NCBI GenBank assembly: GCA_034530615.2
Contig: JAVRCV020000049.1
Coordinates: 160,001-224,000 of the forward strand
Reading direction: 5' to 3'
DNA length: 64,000 nt
Source of the DNA: Aulosira sp. ZfuVER01
GTDB taxonomy: Bacteria > Cyanobacteriota > Cyanobacteriia > Cyanobacteriales > Nostocaceae
A model generated the notes under the pieces. That model was not told the origin of the DNA. It searched no databases and saw only the letters and a program-made list of their open reading frames with translations. Shown here piece by piece: positions 42,812-53,479 of the stretch. Numbering within the stretch: position 1 is the first letter of the stretch; every line of letters starts with the position of its first letter. The position numbers and the translations under genes were made by a program.

Positions 42812-45742
42812 GTGACAGAAGCAGGAAGTTACAAAGATACTGTAAATCTACCCAAAACGAACTTTGATATGCGGGCGAACGCGCTCAAGCGTGAGCCAGA
42901 AATCCAAAAATTTTGGGAAGAAAATAAAATTTACGATCGCCTTTCGCAAAATAATCCCGGCGAATTATTTATACTGCACGATGGGCCTCCCTACGCAAAT
43001 GGCTCACTTCATACTGGTCATGCCTTAAATAAAATTCTCAAAGATATTATTAATCGCTACCAACTGCTGCGGGGGCGAAAGGTTCGTTATGTGCCAGGTT
43101 GGGACTGCCACGGCTTGCCAATCGAACTGAAAGTTTTGCAGAATATGAAGTCAGCAGAACGGCAAAATCTCACGCCTTTACAACTGCGGCAGAAAGCGAA
43201 AGAATTTGCCCTCGCAACAGTAGATGCGCAACGCCAAAGTTTTAAACGTTATGGTGTTTGGGGTGATTGGGATAATCCTTATCTGACTTTGAAGCCGGAA
43301 TATGAAGCAGCGCAAATTGGTGTTTTTGGTCAGATGGTGTTGAAAGGCTACATCTATCGTGGCTTAAAGCCGGTTCACTGGAGTCCTAGTTCTAAGACTG
43401 CTTTGGCTGAGGCTGAGTTGGAATACCCGGAAGGTCATACTTCTCGCAGTATCTACGCGGCTTTCCCCGTCACTAGTTTGTCGGAAGCAGCTAAACCACT
43501 GCTAGGAGAATATTTACCAGATTTGGGTGTGGCTGTTTGGACAACTACACCTTGGACAATTCCCGGTAACTTGGCGGTAGCGGTGAATGCAGACCTAAAC
43601 TACGCTGTGGTGGAAGTTTCAAGCAGAGACGCGGAGGAGGACACTTGCGTGGGCGGGTCTCCCGACTTGAGCAAAGTGTCCGTCGCGCAGAGAGGATTTA
43701 AGTATCTAATTGTGGCGGCTGATTTGGTGGAACGTTTAGCTGCTACTTTGGAACTAGAGCTAACTGTAAAAGCCATATTCAAAGGGAAAGATTTAGAACA
43801 TATCACCTACCGTCATCCTTTATTTGACCGCGAAAGTCCGGTGGTTGTAGGTGGCGATTACATTACCACTGAGTCCGGTACAGGGTTGGTACATACTGCG
43901 CCCGGTCACGGTCAAGAAGACTACATTGTAGGTCAGCGTTACGGTTTGCCTATCCTTGCACCAGTAGACGATAACGGCAACTTTACCCAAGAGGCGGGAC
44001 ATTTTGCTGGGTTGAATGTGCTGGGTGATGGAAATCAGGCGGTAATTGATGCGTTAGCTGCGGCTGGTTCTCTGTTGAAGGAAGAACCCTATCAGCATAA
44101 ATATCCTTACGACTGGCGGACGAAAAAGCCGACGATTTTCCGCGCCACCGAACAATGGTTTGCTTCGGTGGAAGGATTTAGAGAAGAAGCATTAAAAGCG
44201 ATCGCCTCGGTAAAATGGATTCCAGCCCAAGGTGAAAATCGCATCACGCCAATGGTGGCGGAACGTTCTGATTGGTGTATTTCCCGTCAGCGCGCTTGGG
44301 GTGTGCCAATTCCGGTTTTCTATGATGAAGAAACTGGGGAACCACTGCTGAATGAAGAAACCATCAACCACGTCCAAGCCATTATCGCCGAAAAAGGTTC
44401 CGATGCTTGGTGGGAATTGTCGGTAGAGGAATTATTACCAGAACAATACCAGAATAACGGTCGGTCTTACCGCCGAGGTACTGACACAATGGATGTGTGG
44501 TTTGATTCTGGTTCATCTTGGGCAGCTGTTATCAAGCAGCGTCCAGAATTGCGCTACCCTGCGGATATGTATTTAGAAGGTTCCGACCAACATCGCGGTT
44601 GGTTCCAGTCCAGTTTGCTCACCAGTGTAGCAGTGAATGGCATTGCACCTTACAAAACTGTCTTGACTCACGGCTTTGTCCTTGATGAACAAGGGCGGAA
44701 GATGAGTAAGTCATTGGGGAATGTGGTAGATCCGCAAGTGATGATTGTCGGCGGTAAAGACCAGAAAAAAGAACCCCCCTATGGTGCTGATGTGTTGCGG
44801 TTGTGGGTGTCGTCGGTAGATTACACCTCCGATGTGCGTATAGGTAACAACATCATCAAGCAGCTAAATGATGTCAGGGGTAAGATTCGCAATACAGCGC
44901 GTTTCTTGCTGGGTAGCTTGCATGATTTTGACCCAGAAAAAGATGCAGTACCTTTCGAGGAATTGCCAGAACTCGACCGCTATATGCTGCACCGCATCAC
45001 CGAGGTATTCGGTGAAGTCACAGAAGCTTTTGACAGTTTCCAATTCTTCCGCTTCTTCCAGACAGTGCAGAATTTCTGCGTTGTGGATTTATCCAACTTT
45101 TATCTGGATGTTGCTAAAGATAGACTGTACATCAGCACACCTAAAGCTTTCCGCCGTCGCAGTTGTCAAACAGTGCTGAAGATAGCTTTAGAGAATTTAG
45201 CACGAGCGATCGCCCCTGTGTTATGCCACACCGCCGAAGATATTTGGCAACATCTCCCCTACGCAACACCTTACAAATCGGTGTTTGAAGCCGGTTGGGT
45301 ACAAGTAGAGGGAGAATGGCTAAATCCAGAATTAGGTGAATTTTGGGAAGCATTGCGACAACTCCGCACCGATGTTAACAAGGTCTTAGAACTAGCCAGG
45401 ATCGAAAAACTCATTGGTTCATCCCTGGAGGCGAAAGCTTTAATTCACATACCTCACAAACAGTTAGGCGATGCTATCAAAGCTTTTAATCCTGTTAGCG
45501 GTAACGGTATTGATGAACTGCGGTACTTATTGCTGACTTCTCAAGTGGAATTATTAGATTCTGCCGAGAAATTGCAAGGATTGAAATATACAGCGCAGAC
45601 GGAAGACTGGACAATAGGTGTAGTGAATGCAGATGGCGAGAAGTGCGATCGCTGTTGGAACTACTCCACCCACGTGGGAGAATCAAAAGAACATCCCCTA
45701 CTTTGCGAACGGTGCGTTCCAGCCTTAGCAGGTGAGTTTTAG
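42812..45742 (+). CDS. ileS: Isoleucyl-tRNA synthetase (type 1)
   Basis: GPPYANG..HTGH, WTTTPWT, GTGLVHTAPGHG, WCISRQR, KMSKS, C-terminal Zn finger CDRC...CERC. GTG start at 42812 preferred. Confidence 0.98.
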   Translation: MTEAGSYKDTVNLPKTNFDMRANALKREPEIQKFWEENKIYDRLSQNNPGELFILHDGPPYANGSLHTGHALNKILKDIINRYQLLRGRKVRYVPGWDCHGLPIELKVLQNMKSAERQNLTPLQLRQKAKEFALATVDAQRQSFKRYGVWGDWDNPYLTLKPEYEAAQIGVFGQMVLKGYIYRGLKPVHWSPSSKTALAEAELEYPEGHTSRSIYAAFPVTSLSEAAKPLLGEYLPDLGVAVWTTTPWTIPGNLAVAVNADLNYAVVEVSSRDAEEDTCVGGSPDLSKVSVAQRGFKYLIVAADLVERLAATLELELTVKAIFKGKDLEHITYRHPLFDRESPVVVGGDYITTESGTGLVHTAPGHGQEDYIVGQRYGLPILAPVDDNGNFTQEAGHFAGLNVLGDGNQAVIDALAAAGSLLKEEPYQHKYPYDWRTKKPTIFRATEQWFASVEGFREEALKAIASVKWIPAQGENRITPMVAERSDWCISRQRAWGVPIPVFYDEETGEPLLNEETINHVQAIIAEKGSDAWWELSVEELLPEQYQNNGRSYRRGTDTMDVWFDSGSSWAAVIKQRPELRYPADMYLEGSDQHRGWFQSSLLTSVAVNGIAPYKTVLTHGFVLDEQGRKMSKSLGNVVDPQVMIVGGKDQKKEPPYGADVLRLWVSSVDYTSDVRIGNNIIKQLNDVRGKIRNTARFLLGSLHDFDPEKDAVPFEELPELDRYMLHRITEVFGEVTEAFDSFQFFRFFQTVQNFCVVDLSNFYLDVAKDRLYISTPKAFRRRSCQTVLKIALENLARAIAPVLCHTAEDIWQHLPYATPYKSVFEAGWVQVEGEWLNPELGEFWEALRQLRTDVNKVLELARIEKLIGSSLEAKALIHIPHKQLGDAIKAFNPVSGNGIDELRYLLLTSQVELLDSAEKLQGLKYTAQTEDWTIGVVNADGEKCDRCWNYSTHVGESKEHPLLCERCVPALAGEF
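43637..43684 (+). repeat. 48-bp palindromic short dispersed repeat inserted in frame in ileS
   Basis: Terminal IR GGACACTT (43639-46)/AAGTGTCC (43674-81), inner CGGG-TCT-CCCG hairpin; encodes EDTCVGGSPDLSKVSV. Confidence 0.8.
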
Positions 45743-45744
45743 GT

Positions 45745-45797
45745 ATTGGGCATAGGGCATGGGGCATAGGGCATTTTGTCCCCATCCCCCATTCCCC
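45745..45797. repeat. Heptamer tandem repeats after ileS
   Basis: GGGCATA/GGGCATG units followed by CCCCAT units. Confidence 0.8.
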
Positions 45798-45881: not shown

Positions 45882-46127
45882 ATGACTAATCTCTTACAAG
45901 AAGCATTTGCCGTCGTCTCACAGCTACCGGAAGCTGAACAAAATGCGATCGCTCAACTGATTTTGCAGCAAATAGCCCAGCGCGATCAATCACTGCATAA
46001 AATACCTATAGATTTTATGCAATTCGCTGGTATTGCTAGTGCTGAAGAAACAATACTTTTGCAAACTCTTGAACGTGAGATTGAAGAACAGCGATCGTTA
46101 GACTTGCAAAGACAAATCGACCTGTGA
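45882..46127 (+). CDS. Probable antitoxin
   Basis: 81 aa; 4-bp GTGA overlap with the PIN gene; LLQEAFAVVSQLPEAEQNAIA N-terminus. Confidence 0.75.
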   Translation: MTNLLQEAFAVVSQLPEAEQNAIAQLILQQIAQRDQSLHKIPIDFMQFAGIASAEETILLQTLEREIEEQRSLDLQRQIDL

Positions 46128-46540
46128 AAAAAGCTTTATTGGATACTAATATCTTGTCATACTTCCTGCGAGGTGAATTGCAAGTTGTCACAAAATTAAG
46201 TGAATACCAACAATTTCACAGCAATTTAACTTTTTCTGTTCTCACCTACTATGAGATCAAGAGTGGCTTACTCTACAAAGATGCAAGGAAACTGCTTCAA
46301 CAATTTGAAATTCTTGCCAATGGCAGTGAAATTTTACAACTCGATTTAGAAACAGCTAATATTGCAAGTATCATTTACACAGACTTACGTCAAAAAGGTT
46401 TACTAATTAGTCCGATTGACTTGCTTATTGCAGCATCAGCAATTCAACATGAGTGTGTTTTAATTACTGCAAATATTAAACATTTTCAGAATATCGTTAA
46501 CTTAGAATTTGACAATTGGGCAGCACCTCCCTTGTCATGA
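46124..46540 (+). CDS. vapC: PIN-domain (VapC-like) ribonuclease toxin
   Basis: ALLDTNILS, LTYYEIKSG, DLLIAASA, LITANIKHF. Confidence 0.9.
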   Translation: MKKALLDTNILSYFLRGELQVVTKLSEYQQFHSNLTFSVLTYYEIKSGLLYKDARKLLQQFEILANGSEILQLDLETANIASIIYTDLRQKGLLISPIDLLIAASAIQHECVLITANIKHFQNIVNLEFDNWAAPPLS

Positions 46541-46568
46541 AAATTGTACACCAGCAAGGCTTTTATTT

Positions 46569-46640
46569 GGGGGAATGGGGCATTGGGCATGGGGCATAGG
46601 GCAAGAAGGCAATAGTCCTCCTTGTCCCCCTTCCAGTCCC
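46569..46640. repeat. Heptamer/nonamer tandem repeats between convergent vapC and parA
   Basis: GGGAATG GGGCATT GGGCATG GGGCATA units, then CCTTGTCCC units. Confidence 0.75.
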
Positions 46641-47525
46641 CTACAGCTTCTCCAACAACTCCTGAGTTAACTGAATAAATGATTTAGAACCAGGTGATTG
46701 AGGACTCATTAAAACAGCCGGCATAAAACTATCAACAGCTTTTGCCACATTCACATCAACTGGAATTTGGTTTTTACAAATTTTATCTACACCAAAATCT
46801 TCGACAACGCGATGCATAACTTGTTTATAGTATCTGCCAGTCAGGAGATTTGCACTCGACATACTGAATACAATCCCCAGCATTTTTATATCGATTTTCG
46901 CTTCATGTTCGTGACTGTCTTTTAATTGTCCAATGCGTCTTTCCAACAATTGAATACCTACTACAGATAAAGGTTCTGGTTTAGCAGGTAAAATATAAAA
47001 ATCACTGCAAGCCAAAGCGCTACGAGTTAATAGATTATAGCCAGGCGCACAATCTAGAATGATAAAATCATACTCTTGGCGAACTGGTTTTAAGATGTTA
47101 TTAATTAACACCCTTTCAAAACGATTCCAAACTGTTTCAAAATCCTGCTCGCCTAAAGCAACCGATTGTTCGTGCAGCATTTCTGAAACAACAAATTCAT
47201 CATATAAATCGATATCTCCTGGTAATAAATTCAATCCAGGTAGATTACAAACGTTAGTGTGAACGATATCCTGAATCGTCAACTTAGCGTTTGGTTCTGG
47301 TGCGATAACTTGATCTATTAGATATCGAAATGTCTTTCTATTTTTTCGACGCTTGGCAAATTCCAAAGGCGACATCAGGCTGAGTGTGGCACTAATTTGG
47401 CTATCTAAGTCCAGAACCAGCACCCGTTTTCCATGATATTTAGCTAAACAAGTAGCTAAATTAACTGTAATGGTGGTTTTACCGACACCACCTTTCATAT
47501 TTGCAGTTGCAATTACATATCCCAT
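46641..47525 (-). CDS. ParA/Soj-family ATPase (no adjacent parB)
   Basis: Deviant Walker A NMKGGVGKTT, VLVLDLDSQ, IILDCAP. Confidence 0.92.
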   Translation of the reverse strand: MGYVIATANMKGGVGKTTITVNLATCLAKYHGKRVLVLDLDSQISATLSLMSPLEFAKRRKNRKTFRYLIDQVIAPEPNAKLTIQDIVHTNVCNLPGLNLLPGDIDLYDEFVVSEMLHEQSVALGEQDFETVWNRFERVLINNILKPVRQEYDFIILDCAPGYNLLTRSALACSDFYILPAKPEPLSVVGIQLLERRIGQLKDSHEHEAKIDIKMLGIVFSMSSANLLTGRYYKQVMHRVVEDFGVDKICKNQIPVDVNVAKAVDSFMPAVLMSPQSPGSKSFIQLTQELLEKL

Positions 47526-47709: not shown

Positions 47710-50271
47710 TTAGGTTGATGGTAGCTGAATTTTAGTAGCTAATAAACTTTGTAAGCGTTGTAGTTGTGGCCCGACTTGATAAAGTAAATCACCTTTTCCT
47801 AACAAGTAAGCTGCTGCCGTTGATGTACCGCCTAAAATAATTTTGGAATCTGCTTCACTTCTGGTGCTGAGAGCAATTCTTCCTGGTAAATTAGAGCGAA
47901 TCAGTGGAGTAACAATACCCGCTTCGGGACGTTGAGTAGCAATAATCAGATGAATGCCCGCAGCTCTTGCTTTTGCTCCCAATCTTTTAATACTTTGTTC
48001 TAATGCAGTACGAATTTCCTTTTCTGCCATAAAGTCAGCATATTCATCAAAAATGCAGACAATGCGAGGTAGAAGTTGAGCAGAACGATGATTATAAGTA
48101 CTCAAATCAGCACACCCAGCTTTCTCAAACCTTTGGTAACGAGACTCCATCTCTGCAACTAATTCATCCATCAGTTCAATAGCGCGATCGCTATCCTTGA
48201 CAATAGATGAATATGACCAAGACATTTGCTCAAACTCTGGAAACGTCACCCGTTTAGGATCGACAAGGGCGATTTTGAGGTGTTGTGGAGAATGACGATA
48301 TAGTAAGCTGAGGAGGAGCGATCGCAAAAATTCGCTCTTACCACTCCCAGTTGTACCTCCAACTAAAAAGTGACAGGTATTCGGATCGGATAAATCAGCT
48401 TCTATTAATTCTCCTTCCAAATTCACCCCAATCGCAATTTTTACAGGTGCATTTGCAGGTAAGAATAGCGGTTGAATATATGCCTCAAAGCTAGCAACCT
48501 CTCTATCTGAACGGGGTAAATCTATACTGACATACCCAGCTTGTGGAGCAATTAGAGGTGGATTTGCTAACCCTAACTGCACTTGTAAGTCATTAGACAA
48601 GCGTAAAATCGAATTTACACTTACGCCTAAATGGGGTTTCAGCTTCACCCGAATAAAAGCAGGCCCCACAGCAGCGCCTTGATAATCAACTTTAATTTTA
48701 AAAGATTGCAAGGTAGTAACTAATTTTTCACCCATGACATCGCCTAATGCTGATGTCTCCTCCTTTTTAATTGAAGGTTGCGGAGTCTCAACTTCTGTAT
48801 CCACAAAAAAAGTCTGACACTTTTTCTGCTGGGGACAAATTTCACACAGATAAGGCTGAGTTGTTCGTGGTGGTGAATTGGGATGAGGCGGTTCCCAAGT
48901 TAGCCATTCTTGCATTTGTTGCAATTTATAGGGAATCAACTGATGCACAGTATTTTCTAGCTGTTCCCAAGAATATTGATACTCTTTAAATTCTGGTAAA
49001 ACACAGTAAACTGCTGAGTCAACTGGTACTTTTTTCTTTTGCCATAACAAATAACTATACAATGAAACCTGAGCCAACTGCGCTGATGGATCAACAGGTT
49101 GATAGGTTTTAAACTCCACCACAAAAAGGCGATTTACTTCAAAATTAAAAACTAAACAATCAAATTCTCCCCTAACTAGTTGCTGTGTTCCATTAGGGAG
49201 ACTAAAGTAATGCTCAATACTGCGTTCTCCAGAGAGAAAGGTATTACTAATAACGGTTTCTGCATTGCAATAGCGCCGATTAATTACTAACAATTCTGCA
49301 AAGCGCTTAATTAATCCTTGTAATCCTTGCCAAACTTGTAAAAGTGCTTGAGCTTGACTACCATCTTTCGCAACTGCTTCCTGTAGATAGGGAAAGAATT
49401 CAAGTTGATAAAATATTTGTTGCATTTGTGAGGCAACTTCCTCTACCTTTATTTGTGCAGCCTCTGGTTTAAACAAAGTTTTAAATTGCGGTTCAATCAC
49501 AGCTAATTTCACAAATTTATCCGCTAATTTATGAAACGGATTACCGATGCCAATAGCTGTATCTGGTGGTAAAAATATTGCCTTATCGCCAAATGTATGA
49601 TTTAGGTAGAATAAGCGGGGACACTCAAAAGCAAGACGGACTTTAGTCACCGTTAAAGATGAATTATCAGATTTTTCTTTTGGCTGTTTTGAGCTATTAT
49701 TTCCCATATCAAAAATATTAATTACAGCATTGGGATATGATATTTCTAGTAACCGACGATGCACAGCCGCCAAATAAACCGTATCCATCGCCGCATATTT
49801 TAGCTGCTTGTCGCTAAGAGGACGCTTTCCCCAATCACTTCCCTGTTCTTCAATTTCTACATTCGAGAAATTGCAAAGTTCTGCTGCTAAAGTTTTCAGT
49901 TTTAAATTGGAAACTTCCAAGCGTTGACGAGTAATTTTTCTGGCTAATTGTAAAGTACAAGTAACATTCTGCGCTAGCTTACCTCCTAAATACTTTACGT
50001 CATAGCTAGCATTATGAAAAATCTTCTCAATATTGGCATTACTCATGATTTGGTTAACAAAATATGCTGCCAAATCACGTTTATTTAAGACATCGAGAAT
50101 GTAAGCACATACACCTGTTGAGTCTGTCGGATCAGCTAATACCTGAATCAGCGATAATTTTGGATAGTAAGTATTCCAGTCAGCAGTTTCTGTATCTAAC
50201 CAAAGAATTTTAGTAGATGCTAATTTAGATATTAATTCCCGGATTTCCGGAGCTTCTGTCAGGTATTGCAT
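47710..50271 (-). CDS. Fusion of DEDDy 3'-5' exonuclease, 4-Cys PD-(D/E)XK (RecB/Cas4-like) nuclease and FtsK/SpoIIIE motor ATPase
   Basis: ExoI WLDTET, ExoII FHNASYD, ExoIII YAAMD; CPR...GEFDCL...VVEFKT...QVSLY...CEICPQQKKC; HFLVGGTTGSGKS, IFDEYAD, KARAAGIHLIIATQRP, LLGKGD. Confidence 0.9.
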   Translation of the reverse strand: MQYLTEAPEIRELISKLASTKILWLDTETADWNTYYPKLSLIQVLADPTDSTGVCAYILDVLNKRDLAAYFVNQIMSNANIEKIFHNASYDVKYLGGKLAQNVTCTLQLARKITRQRLEVSNLKLKTLAAELCNFSNVEIEEQGSDWGKRPLSDKQLKYAAMDTVYLAAVHRRLLEISYPNAVINIFDMGNNSSKQPKEKSDNSSLTVTKVRLAFECPRLFYLNHTFGDKAIFLPPDTAIGIGNPFHKLADKFVKLAVIEPQFKTLFKPEAAQIKVEEVASQMQQIFYQLEFFPYLQEAVAKDGSQAQALLQVWQGLQGLIKRFAELLVINRRYCNAETVISNTFLSGERSIEHYFSLPNGTQQLVRGEFDCLVFNFEVNRLFVVEFKTYQPVDPSAQLAQVSLYSYLLWQKKKVPVDSAVYCVLPEFKEYQYSWEQLENTVHQLIPYKLQQMQEWLTWEPPHPNSPPRTTQPYLCEICPQQKKCQTFFVDTEVETPQPSIKKEETSALGDVMGEKLVTTLQSFKIKVDYQGAAVGPAFIRVKLKPHLGVSVNSILRLSNDLQVQLGLANPPLIAPQAGYVSIDLPRSDREVASFEAYIQPLFLPANAPVKIAIGVNLEGELIEADLSDPNTCHFLVGGTTGSGKSEFLRSLLLSLLYRHSPQHLKIALVDPKRVTFPEFEQMSWSYSSIVKDSDRAIELMDELVAEMESRYQRFEKAGCADLSTYNHRSAQLLPRIVCIFDEYADFMAEKEIRTALEQSIKRLGAKARAAGIHLIIATQRPEAGIVTPLIRSNLPGRIALSTRSEADSKIILGGTSTAAAYLLGKGDLLYQVGPQLQRLQSLLATKIQLPST

Positions 50272-50301
50272 TGACTAATTATTAACACTTATAGCAAGAA
50301 A

Positions 50302-52338
50302 TTATTTTTTAGGTACTAAGCAAATTAACTGAGCTTCCAGCCTAGCTTTAGGGTCAAGTAATTTAATTTGATTTTTTTGACATAATTCTTGAATAGATGC
50401 TTCTATTTGAGCTTCAATTGCAGTAGGAAAGTGACTGAGGGTATTTTGAATCAAAGTTTGTCTACTTAATAAATACTGAGTAGTGACTAAATTTAATATA
50501 AAGTCATTTATTGGTAATTTTGGTGGAGGTTTGATTGTTCCTTTAACTATGCCTAAATCTTTTAATAAAGGACAGTCTTCTAAAACTTTAGATTCACGAA
50601 TAAGAGCTTGCAAATTCTTTAGGTTGATTGTTTGACTACCAATAACTAAATCATTTTCACGAGCATCTCTAACTAAACTTTGGTAAGTCTCTAGGAAATG
50701 AACAGAGATAAGATTTGGCTTGATGTGTTTATGAGGTGATTCTGTAAAAATCTCTACAAATACTTTATGTCCTTTATTTTTAGAATCACCCAATCCTTCT
50801 GCGCGAATCAGATATAGAGTTAAAGAAGGATCTTTTTTAATAGCTTTTTTGCAAGCTTCCATGATGTAGAAGAAGTTGGTCATATTAGCATCTTCTGTCC
50901 AAACTACTCCGAAGTTTCCAGGGTTATTAGGCAATTGATAGCCTATTGAATAACTAGCATACTTAGTTCCAGTAAAGAGTGGAGTTTTAATTCCTTCTAT
51001 TTGCAACCCTGCTAAAGATTCTTTTATAATCTGAATCAAGTCTGGTGAAGATAAATGGCGAAATTTTGTAATTCGCTGTTGAACTTTAGTAAATTCTTCC
51101 TGCCATTTTAATTTAAATGATGCTAGTAATTTTAGTTTTTTATTTTTGTCCTCTACTTCATCATTTTTAGGATATGTAAAATCTGCTGGATTTTTGCCAT
51201 TTACTAACCATTCTTTATAGTATTGAAATATATCTCTACCAAGAATTATAATATTTCTGGGATCAGTCTTTCCTGAAGGAAATTCTTCTTCTAAATATTG
51301 GCGATTTAAAGGATAAAGGGCAGAATTGGGTTTAGGATTTACCTGACGATGAAGCAAATAAAGACGAGATGCTAGTAGTAGTTCTGCTTGTTGTAAATTG
51401 ATAGGTCTGAGAGGAACTTGTCGTTCTATTCTAGCTTTATCAGTCTGATCAATCTGCCTTGCTTGCTTATTCCAAATATCTGTATTAATGCTGATAATAA
51501 TTAGAAAATTGTTATCTTCATCATGTATTTTTGTGTTAACGTCAAACAAGTTTTGCAAGGCAAGTGAACCATCTGGGAGACGCGCAATATTGTTTAACTG
51601 ATCAAAGCAAAGTACAATTGGCTGGGTATCAGCTGCAATTCTACTAAAGTTCGCTAAAGTTTCTCTTGCAGCTTCTTCTGTATCAATAGACCTCTTAACT
51701 TTTAGCTCTTGCAAAGACTCTTCAGCTAAATCATCTCCACGTAACCACTCGCAAGCTACAGGATACAGTTCTAAATCCGTCAGATCATGTAAAACTCCGA
51801 AAAAGCTGTCTGCATTATAGATACCTACTTGTTTGTATATATCTTTTAGTTTGTGAATAAATCTGCGGCGATCACTTCGCAATAAATCAAATATATCATC
51901 CTTAAAAATGCGTTCTTTAACGCTGCGTTGTTTAATAGCAAATAGAACATTTTCCAGCCAAAGTAACAGTTGAGAATCTTTTTGTCCCTCTGGAACTTGT
52001 ACTAAACTATCAACTGTGTAGCGTAAAATGTGCCTCCAGATGCTATCAGTCTGAGGAAATGGAGGAATATAAACAAAAAATGCTTTATGGTTTAATTTGT
52101 TCTTAAGTCTACCCAAAAGATAGGTCTTGCCAGAACCACCATCACCGTCCAATATCAGAGTACGTGTGCGATGATCTTGAGCAACTTGGTCGAGTATTAC
52201 TTCAATTGTAGTGATCGCTTCTTGATGGATAGAATCAACTATAGGTTCTGGCTGTTGCTGTTTGTGCCAAAAGTTGACAGAGCGAAAGTTATCGAAGGGG
52301 TTGATACTCCTCAGAATAATTTCATCTATAGATACCAT
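50302..52338 (-). CDS. P-loop (AAA+-like) ATPase with extended C-terminal domains; possibly RcaG-like
   Basis: Walker A GDGGSGKT, Walker B-like IVLCFDQL; 11 bp after the upstream gene and 30 bp before the downstream gene. Confidence 0.85.
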   Translation of the reverse strand: MVSIDEIILRSINPFDNFRSVNFWHKQQQPEPIVDSIHQEAITTIEVILDQVAQDHRTRTLILDGDGGSGKTYLLGRLKNKLNHKAFFVYIPPFPQTDSIWRHILRYTVDSLVQVPEGQKDSQLLLWLENVLFAIKQRSVKERIFKDDIFDLLRSDRRRFIHKLKDIYKQVGIYNADSFFGVLHDLTDLELYPVACEWLRGDDLAEESLQELKVKRSIDTEEAARETLANFSRIAADTQPIVLCFDQLNNIARLPDGSLALQNLFDVNTKIHDEDNNFLIIISINTDIWNKQARQIDQTDKARIERQVPLRPINLQQAELLLASRLYLLHRQVNPKPNSALYPLNRQYLEEEFPSGKTDPRNIIILGRDIFQYYKEWLVNGKNPADFTYPKNDEVEDKNKKLKLLASFKLKWQEEFTKVQQRITKFRHLSSPDLIQIIKESLAGLQIEGIKTPLFTGTKYASYSIGYQLPNNPGNFGVVWTEDANMTNFFYIMEACKKAIKKDPSLTLYLIRAEGLGDSKNKGHKVFVEIFTESPHKHIKPNLISVHFLETYQSLVRDARENDLVIGSQTINLKNLQALIRESKVLEDCPLLKDLGIVKGTIKPPPKLPINDFILNLVTTQYLLSRQTLIQNTLSHFPTAIEAQIEASIQELCQKNQIKLLDPKARLEAQLICLVPKK

Positions 52339-52349
52339 AAAGTTACTCT

Positions 52350-53207
52350 TTAGTTCACGGTAAGTTTAATGAAAAACAGCGGACTTCCTGAACGCTGGTT
52401 AATTCCAGCGTTGACTTGCTCTTGAGTGTATTCTTGAGCGTGTACAAGCGCTCTCAATTCAATTTGGTCATTCTTTTGCAAACGATACAGTACTTGATCT
52501 AATTCATCCCTTGAAAGCGGTGGTTGTAACTTTTGTCGCAGATGGAAAATAGGTAAATAATTATCTGTACCCAATTCCTTATCTAATTTTTCAATAATTT
52601 GTAAAATTTCTTCATCACTGAGATTACTAATTATTTCAGAAGCTGACTCTGTAGCAATTGTTAGTGAAGTAGAAACTTGTTCTGACTTTACTCGCAAGTT
52701 CTTGCGTAAAAACCGCAGGTAATTACCCAGCAATTCCAAACTAATGACGGGGTTAGAGCCTTTGTTAGGACTGTAATCATCCCGCAAATACTCAATTCCT
52801 CTTTCAGTTAACCAAACTTCGGCTTTAGTTCTTTGAATTTTGATTTCAGCTTCAATCAACCCCCGTTCCTTCAGGGTGTTCAATATCGCATCTCGTTCAG
52901 CAGCTTTTGGCGAGGTGATTTTGCTGGGGGCGATTTTCCCAGAAGCTTTACTTATCTTGTCCAGTACTTTGAGTTCTTTGTCTGTGATCGGTACTTGGGC
53001 TGCATCAAGCTTCAGCAGAGCTTGACCCGGCGGTAAAATTTTAACTGTGGCAATCTCACGGGTATAGTCTACCAGTTCGCGATCGCCCAAATCTCGACAA
53101 ATTTTGTCTTTACCTTTAAACGAGCTAAAAGCACTTGCAGTAAGGCTAGAGCGATAATTGGGACATCCCAACAACTTGAGTAGAAACTTTAACTCGTTCG
53201 TTTCCAT
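52350..53207 (-). CDS. rcaD: Multi-winged-helix DNA-binding protein, resembling proteins annotated RcaD
   Basis: wH-like segments (LGDRELVDY, LKERGLIEA...WLTERG, SRDELDQVLYRLQKNDQIEL). The name is from recall of the family N-terminus (ELKFLLKLLG) and is not verified. Confidence 0.55.
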   Translation of the reverse strand: METNELKFLLKLLGCPNYRSSLTASAFSSFKGKDKICRDLGDRELVDYTREIATVKILPPGQALLKLDAAQVPITDKELKVLDKISKASGKIAPSKITSPKAAERDAILNTLKERGLIEAEIKIQRTKAEVWLTERGIEYLRDDYSPNKGSNPVISLELLGNYLRFLRKNLRVKSEQVSTSLTIATESASEIISNLSDEEILQIIEKLDKELGTDNYLPIFHLRQKLQPPLSRDELDQVLYRLQKNDQIELRALVHAQEYTQEQVNAGINQRSGSPLFFIKLTVN

Positions 53208-53376
53208 GCTGGTAATCTTGCCTGTATCTAATTAAGCATTAAGCACTACTCTAGCTCGAATGGCAAAAATTGACACACTTTTCCTAGCGTAGCATTAGTA
53301 TCCATGACTACGGAAAAGTAGGTGATCAGAATATACAGCGTTTCTAGCTATTAACTGACTTAACATTTCATAGCCA

Positions 53377-53453
53377 GTAGGGTACGTTATGGCAGAACGA
53401 CTAACGCACAGATGAGCAAATCAAAATGGTGCGTTACTTAGTTAACGCACCAT
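53377..53453. repeat. REP-like GTGCGTTA/TAACGCAC palindromes
   Basis: GTAGGGTACGTTA...TAACGCAC, then ATGGTGCGTTA-CTTAGT-TAACGCACCAT. Confidence 0.65.
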
Positions 53454-53479
53454 ACTTAAGAAATATAAGACTGTTGAAG

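Follow-up and report, generated by a model that had tools for sequence, protein, structure and literature searches.

The subject of this report is a three-gene cassette of Aulosira sp. ZfuVER01, a cyanobacterium of the family Nostocaceae. It lies in a window of 64,000 nucleotides (the whole stretch of DNA that we analysed, positions 160,001 to 224,000 of contig JAVRCV020000049.1 in assembly GCA_034530615.2). The genes, rcaD (D), rcaG (G) and a nuclease-FtsK gene that we call K, follow one another on the minus strand. The original prediction, made from the DNA letters and the open reading frames (ORFs) alone, had given three co-directional genes for proteins of 285, 678 and 853 amino acids (aa) with gaps of 11 bp (D/G) and 30 bp (G/K), and the ORF list confirmed this arrangement. 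Its account of the products as a multi-winged-helix (wH) protein, a P-loop ATPase and a protein with two intact-looking nuclease sites joined to an FtsK motor was borne out by Pfam, by alignment and by structural models. Judged against the related loci described below, the locus holds, complete and intact, a three-gene cassette that is conserved in cyanobacteria.

Table 1. Features of the D-G-K cassette and its surroundings (positions in the window; residues in the protein concerned).
Feature	Position	Strand	Residues	Description
rcaD (D)	52350-53207	-		285 aa; three wH domains
D wH domains			about 1-57, 76-133, 198-282	predicted model; disordered linker at 174-194
rcaG (G)	50302-52338	-		678 aa; Orc/Cdc6-like AAA+ ATPase by its structural model
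G AAA+ core, lid and first wH-like part	51160-52323	-	6-393	
G alpha/beta middle domain	50539-51141	-	400-600	candidate "inactive REase" insert
G C-terminal winged helix	50311-50538	-	601-676	
K (nuclease-FtsK)	47710-50271	-		853 aa; predicted soluble nuclease-translocase
K DEDDy 3'-5' exonuclease	49747-50265	-	3-175	DNA_pol_A_exo1 7.5e-31 (Pfam)
K Cas4/RecB-like PD-(D/E)XK nuclease	48814-49656	-	206-486	PDDEXK_1 1.8e-11 (Pfam)
K FtsK alpha and RecA-like motor	47737-48762	-	504-845	
Region upstream of rcaD	53208-53479	-		terminator-like hairpin and ~218 bp putative promoter region
Terminator-like hairpin	53426-53453	-		at end of preceding SDR gene
ParA gene	46641-47525	-		downstream of cassette; AAA_31 1.1e-36 (Pfam)
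PIN gene	46124-46540	+		downstream of cassette; PF01850 1.6e-13
81-aa ORF	45882-46127			upstream of PIN gene, overlapping it; putative toxin-antitoxin pair spans 45882-46540

The largest product, K, couples two nuclease domains to a motor. Its exonuclease domain retains the motifs expected of the family (D26/E28, D91 and Y159/D163), and its profile matches the structures of NrnC, diDNase, RNase D and Rrp6 at 6e-17 to 2e-07. The second domain has the PD-(D/E)XK residues D371, E386 and K388, a QxxxY motif (Q398 and Y405) and four cysteines (C217, C476, C479 and C485), a set typical of Cas4/AddB-type Fe-S nucleases and invariant in 27 of 27 aligned sequences. The Walker A (residues 638 to 647) and Walker B (D742/E743) motifs of the motor are invariant in the same number of aligned K-family proteins. 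By these catalytic residues, both nuclease sites are intact in the window copy. The likeness to Cas4 is one of domain type only and falls short of what marks a CRISPR-associated Cas4: Cas4 models matched the nuclease at 4.9e-05 and 1.8e-04, under the curated cut-off, TIGR00372 (Cas4) gave 21.4 bits against a cut-off of 65, and no cas genes were found among the scanned window ORFs (36423 to 63746). A phmmer search of the PDB with the nuclease domain gave no match. Elsewhere in the same genome (L042, 4019-4939; G000:C36) a stand-alone 306-aa protein is paralogous to the exonuclease domain of K, with 52% identity over aa 1-178, and it occurs in nearly every searched Nostocales genome, K-less ones included.

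The motor of K matches FtsK_alpha (2.6e-10, aa 504-586) and FtsK_SpoIIIE (7.2e-39, aa 607-782) in Pfam, and aa 496-845 match Pseudomonas aeruginosa FtsK (2iuu) at 5.3e-90. With the canonical FtsK of Escherichia coli and P. aeruginosa, K shares the alpha and beta motor domains and all the ATPase motifs, but it lacks the transmembrane N-terminus, the long linker and the gamma domain that reads KOPS. No hydrophobic segment was found in K (the highest 19-residue Kyte-Doolittle mean was 1.07), the protein terminates 8 residues past the motor, and FtsK_gamma (PF09397) had no match in the whole genome, as against matches in 8 of 14 control genomes. Unlike canonical FtsK, K carries two fused nuclease domains, and relatives dispense with it. 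Public annotation names it "DNA translocase FtsK," "cell division FtsK" or "PD-(D/E)XK nuclease family protein," and nothing else in this 8.03-Mb, 99.99%-complete genome matches PF01580 above cut-off. This singularity and the closeness of the motor to P. aeruginosa FtsK are what could recommend K as the housekeeping FtsK of cyanobacteria, acting in segregation and dimer resolution at the septum, an explanation that we regard as extremely unlikely. The missing membrane anchor and gamma domain argue against it, as do the two fused nuclease domains with intact sites. None of five complete same-family genomes without K had a domain-length FtsK (PF01580) match (one of the five gave two 26-bit matches to the P-loop only, on secondary contigs), and pseudogenised copies of K exist; on these last two grounds K was dropped as a housekeeping FtsK. 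In the relevant passages of PMC9426583 the "putative FtsK" of Anabaena is the plasmid gene All7666, and those of PMC7766704 give only HerA/YjgR-type proteins for model strains.

The structural model of G (predicted local distance difference test [pLDDT] 88, predicted template modelling score [pTM] 0.89) identifies this protein as an Orc/Cdc6-like AAA+ ATPase. For aa 6-393, the best VIA matches were Drosophila Cdc6 (7jgr_G; Z 15.3, root mean square deviation [rmsd] 3.5, 252 aligned) and 1fnn_B (Z 14.6), followed by TnsC (Z 13.9) and BrxC (9zdx_A; Z 13.3, rmsd 4.1, 268 aligned), and Foldseek matched G to Cdc6 1fnn_A at 5.5e-05. The Walker A motif reads GDGGSGKT (65-72), with K71 invariant in 34 of 34 sequences and an AAA_16 match of 1.1e-07 at the P-loop, and the Walker B motif reads FDQ, D246 being followed by Q instead of E. 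The C-terminal aa 601-676 are predicted to form a winged helix (cullin WHB; Z 10.6, rmsd 3.1, 72 aligned). This is the fastest-diverging part of G, with a mean pairwise identity of 0.30-0.33 versus 0.56-0.63 for the AAA core. In the middle domain the order of elements, helix-strand-strand-strand-helix-strand, is restriction-endonuclease-like, and the third strand is without a (D/E)xK motif. Pfam gave no family for aa 394-600 even at E 10, and the ESM Atlas, searched with the C-terminal half of G, returned only unnamed cyanobacterial clusters.

The model of D (pLDDT 82) folds as three winged helices, and in structure comparison its wH domains, taken singly, resemble winged helices of the MarR type (Z 8-9.4); with the model as a whole, Foldseek found nothing at E 0.001 or better. 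By word-based search D has 1502 matching proteins at E <= 0.001, and among the 120 matches listed many with 70-90% identity bear the NCBI name "transcription factor RcaD." Over 99% of its length, D shares 84% identity with a Tolypothrix protein of 285 aa. The original prediction had pointed to a resemblance of the first two genes to rcaD-rcaG of Calothrix/Tolypothrix sp. PCC 7601, and this has held: in passages of PMC2799420, RcaD of Tolypothrix PCC 7601 is likewise a 285-aa protein, and RcaG is a putative ATPase encoded downstream of it. By the named homologues, and with length of D and gene order identical, the first two genes are taken to be the orthologues of rcaD and rcaG. The role published for the pair is regulation of phycobiliprotein promoters, and in those passages neither a third gene nor the Orc/Cdc6 nature of RcaG belongs to the description. 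DNA binding in vitro has been seen for RcaD and for a Lyngbya homologue. Jamaicamide promoter DNA pulled down two Lyngbya proteins, each preceding an RcaG-like gene, one of them a true RcaD homologue and the other of the All4300 type (PMC2799420, same passages). The promoter DNA that caught both Lyngbya homologues was an unrelated one, which suggests general DNA binding.

Prediction of a D-G complex gave an ipSAE (interaction prediction score from aligned errors) of 0.55, the best control reaching 0.01, and the runs agreed in at least 82% of contacts with a partner pLDDT of at least 76. In calibration, 116 of 157 solved complexes came up to the mark, as did 2 of 215 mismatched pairs, and an ipSAE of 0.60 or less at the mark was confined to 18 of the 157 solved complexes and both passing mismatches; for D-G these counts are only approximate, own alignments having been used for the prediction. 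The predicted complex weakly supports a direct D-G contact.

A single set of 301 cyanobacterial genomes was surveyed with K, G and D. D was found in 41 genomes. In 40 of the 41 it immediately precedes G, and in 33 of the 41 K or a split K comes directly after D-G on the same strand, which answers in the affirmative whether the three genes co-occur across cyanobacteria. In two genomes (G071 and G145) K lies elsewhere on the contig, and six have D-G, or D alone, without K; in none of the 301 genomes was a full-length K found without D-G. A 301-aa nuclease-like remnant stands alone after G in G257, with D371N, E386H and K388Q and with the cysteines kept. Stop codons interrupt D, G and K alike in G297, only K is broken in G183 and G233, and short K remnants persist in G032, G044 and G059. 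By this shared distribution and decay, D, G and K behave as one evolutionary unit. The cassette is likewise, on its distribution, accessory and patchy rather than housekeeping: D is present in 16 of the 37 genomes of the window's family, in none of 14 from f24, a family with small genomes, and in none of 166 from ten families lumped in the tally, and full-length K is absent from about half of the same-family genomes.

Beyond these genomes, one D-G-K copy resides on a conjugative 329-kb Pseudanabaena plasmid, the sole match among 72,556 plasmid records, and the phage records contained no G homologue. A profile scan of genome contigs with 14 aligned short PD-(D/E)XK-FtsK forms gave 80 loci, 79 of them matching the ordinary FtsK motor only, a scan that picked up the generic FtsK motif and says little on the range beyond cyanobacteria. 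The only locus matched in full (L043) belongs to a metagenome-assembled genome of Hormoscilla (OZ001293.3), itself a cyanobacterium; about 5 kb is inserted there between G and K. A word search with residues 1-330 of P0269 found 2 proteins, and looking up the clusters of 10 distant representatives yielded no taxa.

The genes differ in how fast they diverge. In loci that also contain IleRS, identity to the window protein was 83-85% for IleRS, 79-90% for ParA, 71-75% for K and about 65-75% for D, and it was 48-49% for G (64% in three other loci). The divergence of rcaG, much faster than that of IleRS or K, reads as sensor-like. The GC content is 0.32-0.35 across rcaG and the start of K (49500-52000), compared with 0.42-0.48 in the flanks; the dip over rcaG is compatible with a fast-evolving or a once-foreign gene.

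K itself is modular. It is without the exonuclease in G038 and on the Pseudanabaena plasmid, in G263 its exonuclease, nuclease and motor are encoded by separate genes, and its domains are permuted in G002. The K of G197 (L026, 12508-15873; 1121 aa) has a Ser/Thr protein-kinase domain between the exonuclease and nuclease domains, and at the G263 locus (L025) a kinase-trypsin gene lies between the K pieces. The two loci with a dead fused PD-(D/E)XK site have an intact stand-alone PD-(D/E)XK gene in the same locus. Tandem D-G-G' loci occur in four genomes.

The original prediction had put the system forward as undescribed, a claim that has to be given up, as its class was described in silico in section 22 of PMC10853773 (Nucleic Acids Res 2024) under the name "Orc/CDC6-HerA/FtsK capture systems." The components predicted there are an Orc/CDC6 ATPase with an inactive restriction endonuclease (REase) inserted before a C-terminal winged helix-turn-helix (wHTH), an active REase and a HerA/FtsK, one set of which has FtsK-alpha; subsets have a protein that carries 2-4 wHTH domains and evolves fast, or a 3'-5' exonuclease fused to FtsK. 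As proposed by its authors, the DNA-binding components serve to localise the apparatus and the pump to capture invader DNA for the nucleases, and a passage of PMC12839542 restates the description. Cyanobacteria and RcaD/RcaG have 0 occurrences in the main text of PMC10853773, the supplement of which may list cyanobacterial members. The Aulosira cassette has the same Orc/CDC6 AAA+ ATPase, active REase-fold nuclease, FtsK with FtsK-alpha and fused 3'-5' exonuclease, D with its three wH domains is a putative counterpart of the multi-wHTH protein, and a patchy, modular distribution is common to both. G has an inserted domain at the same place ahead of the C-terminal wHTH, and its aa 400-600 are a putative "inactive REase" insert, a candidate assignment made from the published description and, as to the REase fold, from topology only. 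The cassette departs from the description in its largely vertical inheritance at a fixed Nostocales site and in an active nuclease of the Cas4-like Fe-S type. By its domain content, it is a member of the Orc/CDC6-HerA/FtsK capture class, which is known only in silico. A second cassette in the same genome (L041, 5822-9918; G000:C43) encodes a 226-aa protein with no Pfam family that is All4300-like by size, a 632-aa Orc-like AAA ATPase with 23% identity to G and a 489-aa protein with DUF1802 and an Mrr_cat-like nuclease, and it fits the "Orc/Cdc6 + wHTH + REase" variant of PMC10853773.

Other known systems share parts of this design. HerA-NurA, Sir2-HerA and DUF4297-HerA follow the same logic, in which a ring ATPase of the FtsK-HerA superfamily is coupled to DNA-digesting nucleases, but the motor of K belongs to the FtsK clade (DUF87 matched at 0.0046 with 17.5 bits, the cut-off being 23.2), its nucleases are fused rather than separate, and the cassette adds an Orc/Cdc6 ATPase and a wH protein; NurA had no match to the cassette proteins in the Pfam, PADLOC or Cas4-family scans. 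With SspFGH/DndFGH, K 503-832 matches the C-terminal FtsK-like module of SspH (model 1399-1738 of 1766; PADLOC 3.2e-63), and the triple-wH partner D recalls DndG/SspB. Only this motor module matches SspH/DndH, however, and K is half the size. SspF matched G only at the P-loop (0.0038) and no SspG or DndG match was found in PADLOC, where the DndG/SspB models also gave no match to D at E 0.1. FokI, DndG and SspB are absent among the structural matches listed for D, and there are no phosphorothioate genes in the window. The AAA+ part of G is similar to BrxC of BREX (22.5 bits for Pfam BrxC_BrxD, where the cut-off is 22.2), but Cdc6/ORC scores higher, and no PglZ, PglX or BrxA/B lies near the cassette.

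We compared the surroundings of the cassette in 40 fetched loci whose ORFs were clustered. As the original prediction had stated, a ParA gene and a PIN toxin-antitoxin pair lie directly downstream (Pfam); that they belong to the unit was not supported. In 12 loci, the window's own and 11 of those fetched, the gene after K is ParA (~294 aa), which also stands at the same place in all four fetched K-less loci (L030-L033), is intact in L037, where D, G and K are pseudogenes, and is missing from D-G-K loci outside the Nostocales; among the 40 loci compared, the PIN pair is at the site only in the window's genome. ParA and the PIN pair are therefore neighbours, not parts, because ParA persists without K and is missing outside the Nostocales and the toxin-antitoxin pair is strain-specific. 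Tandem heptamer repeats of GGGCATn at 45728-45773 and 46558-46617 flank the pair, and the repeat is dispersed, contigs from unrelated RNA runs matching it. In L030-L033 (G149, G099, G143 and G083), an opposite-strand pair of ~245 aa and a ParA-like protein of 457-503 aa replaces K plus D or G, leaving a lone intact G or, in L033, D. Upstream of rcaD the terminator-like hairpin is a hint only, as the counts of the promoter/terminator scan were no higher than the shuffle expectation (4 terminator-like sites in the region versus 5.1 expected), and the operon promoter probably lies within the ~218 bp between the hairpin and rcaD.

Orc/Cdc6 proteins act as initiators, and actinomycete elements conjugate by means of FtsK-like pumps. 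With an Orc-like initiator, a pump of the FtsK type, ParA and a toxin-antitoxin pair, the genes might be the remnant of a mobile element's replication and transfer functions; the adjoining ParA and PIN genes, the plasmid-borne copy and the low GC content over rcaG would fit such an origin, as would the FtsK-like pumps of actinomycete conjugative elements in passages of PMC11706625. We consider this very unlikely, given that the window contains no integrase, relaxase or att-like repeats, that the site is syntenic across the Nostocales, that ParA stays where K is gone and the toxin-antitoxin pair is peculiar to one strain, and that nucleases fused to a pump are ill-suited to DNA export. The remaining genes of the window, among ORFs scanned from 36423 to 63746, are ordinary chromosomal genes.

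These results together point to a system for capturing and degrading DNA that is probably aimed at foreign DNA. RcaD would bind DNA through its three winged helices, and RcaG, as an Orc/Cdc6-type AAA+ switch with a nuclease-like insert and a fast-evolving C-terminal wH, would assemble with RcaD on the target and recruit or load the gamma-less, membrane-free FtsK ring. A hexameric ring of K could then pump double-stranded DNA past its own two nuclease domains, and the Cas4-like Fe-S nuclease and the DEDD 3'-5' exonuclease, both with intact catalytic residues, would degrade both strands. DNA that enters the cell or is non-chromosomal, whether of a phage, of a plasmid or taken up in transformation, is the probable target. 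The published influence of rcaD on phycobiliprotein operons would then be incidental to a general DNA binder, or a second use made of it. The three-component machine of the original prediction thus gains from the linkage of the genes, their joint decay and their domain logic; its suggestion that the machine might act on chromosome ends or in chromosome resolution is weakened, since the five complete cassette-less relatives gave no domain-length FtsK match.

Several findings weigh against capture of foreign DNA. The capture class is without a reported experiment on any member in the passages of PMC10853773 and PMC12839542 that describe it. PADLOC gave no full-length match for the cassette, in keeping with the original prediction, which had recognised no named defence system in it, and the cassette has no modification enzyme or other self/non-self device. 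In the Nostocales, the order c4-c5-D-G-K-ParA...IleRS marks one fixed chromosomal site among housekeeping genes and not a defence island. Enrichment of known defence genes was also not found around the non-syntenic copies: PADLOC matched 24 of 130 flanking proteins versus 17 of 134 at control loci taken from these genomes, and 8 of 12 loci had a PADLOC hit of 1e-20 or better versus 6 of 11 controls. With Ser/Thr kinase neighbours (PD-T4-6-like) at 3 of the 12 test loci as against 2 of the 11 controls, this link is not above background. No expression data for the locus were found in the RNA run search, where four small runs, with 7-8% of sampled words, covered only the heptamer stretch 46570-46615 and a few letters near 49827; since the matches are confined to the heptamer repeat, nothing is learned from them on expression or co-transcription of the cassette. 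Intact G without D or K occurs in G099, G143 and G149, and D-G without K in G141, G161, G181 and G177, so that D and G may have work of their own. A further point, the published promoter binding of RcaD and its pigment phenotype, bears on a rival explanation and is taken up with it.

The first rival takes RcaD as an activator and RcaG as its helper ATPase, tuning phycobiliprotein operons in chromatic acclimation, with K a mere neighbour. Summarising Noubir et al. 2002, passages of PMC2799420 state that RcaD binds the cpc2 promoter and that an rcaD mutant alters the expression of phycobiliprotein operons; several red-light operons are affected by RcaD, and RcaG may aid binding. The K-less D-G pairs and lone intact G genes would suit this explanation as well. 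We nevertheless judge it distinctly unlikely, given the contiguity of D, G and K in most D-bearing genomes and their joint decay in G297, and given that an Orc/Cdc6-type AAA+ protein is not a typical transcription cofactor. Of the 37 same-family genomes, all of which carry phycobilisomes, 21 lack D. The same genome has a paralogous cassette of wH, Orc-like and REase proteins, and the capture of the Lyngbya homologues with unrelated promoter DNA suggests general DNA binding.

The cassette might instead act on the cell's own DNA, in RecBCD/AddAB-like end resection or in the clean-up of chromosome copies in polyploid cyanobacteria, where it might, for instance, clear away copies that are broken or caught in the septum. 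Our search of the Aulosira genome found no RecC, no RecB above cut-off and no AddB of the Gram-positive type, AdnAB and proteobacterial AddAB lying outside the search, and K may be the sole candidate for a processive double-stranded DNA nuclease in the genome. Since RecC, RecB and Gram-positive-type AddB were not found, a RecBCD-like role on linear DNA is conceivable. K also joins a ring translocase to nucleases of both polarities, a combination to which HerA-NurA is a functional parallel, and the cassette is vertically inherited at a fixed site beside ParA in the Nostocales. Own-DNA processing is unlikely all the same: about half of the close relatives have neither the cassette nor a replacement FtsK, G evolves far faster than housekeeping genes, and one copy is plasmid-borne.

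A more specific version of capture and degradation can be offered tentatively. RcaG and RcaD might be a dedicated ring loader that sets a gamma-less FtsK hexamer on chosen DNA, in a bacterial parallel to ORC/Cdc6 loading MCM, and K a stand-in for RecBCD/AddAB that processively destroys linear or foreign DNA; the promoter binding of RcaD would then amount to DNA sensing and not to dedicated pigment regulation. All of this together is less than likely.

If the capture reading is true, rcaD and rcaG, named as regulators, become the sensing half of a DNA-destroying machine. The annotation of K as "cell division FtsK" across the Nostocales is misleading, since K has neither membrane nor gamma domain and relatives are FtsK-free, and studies that count K among division genes may need a second look. 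As an intact, complete copy, the Aulosira locus offers material for a first test of the predicted "FtsK capture" class, and it bears on how a ring translocase and an ATPase of the Orc/Cdc6 type work together. Also on condition that the reading is true, K could be a barrier to conjugation or transformation in strains used for cyanobacterial engineering.

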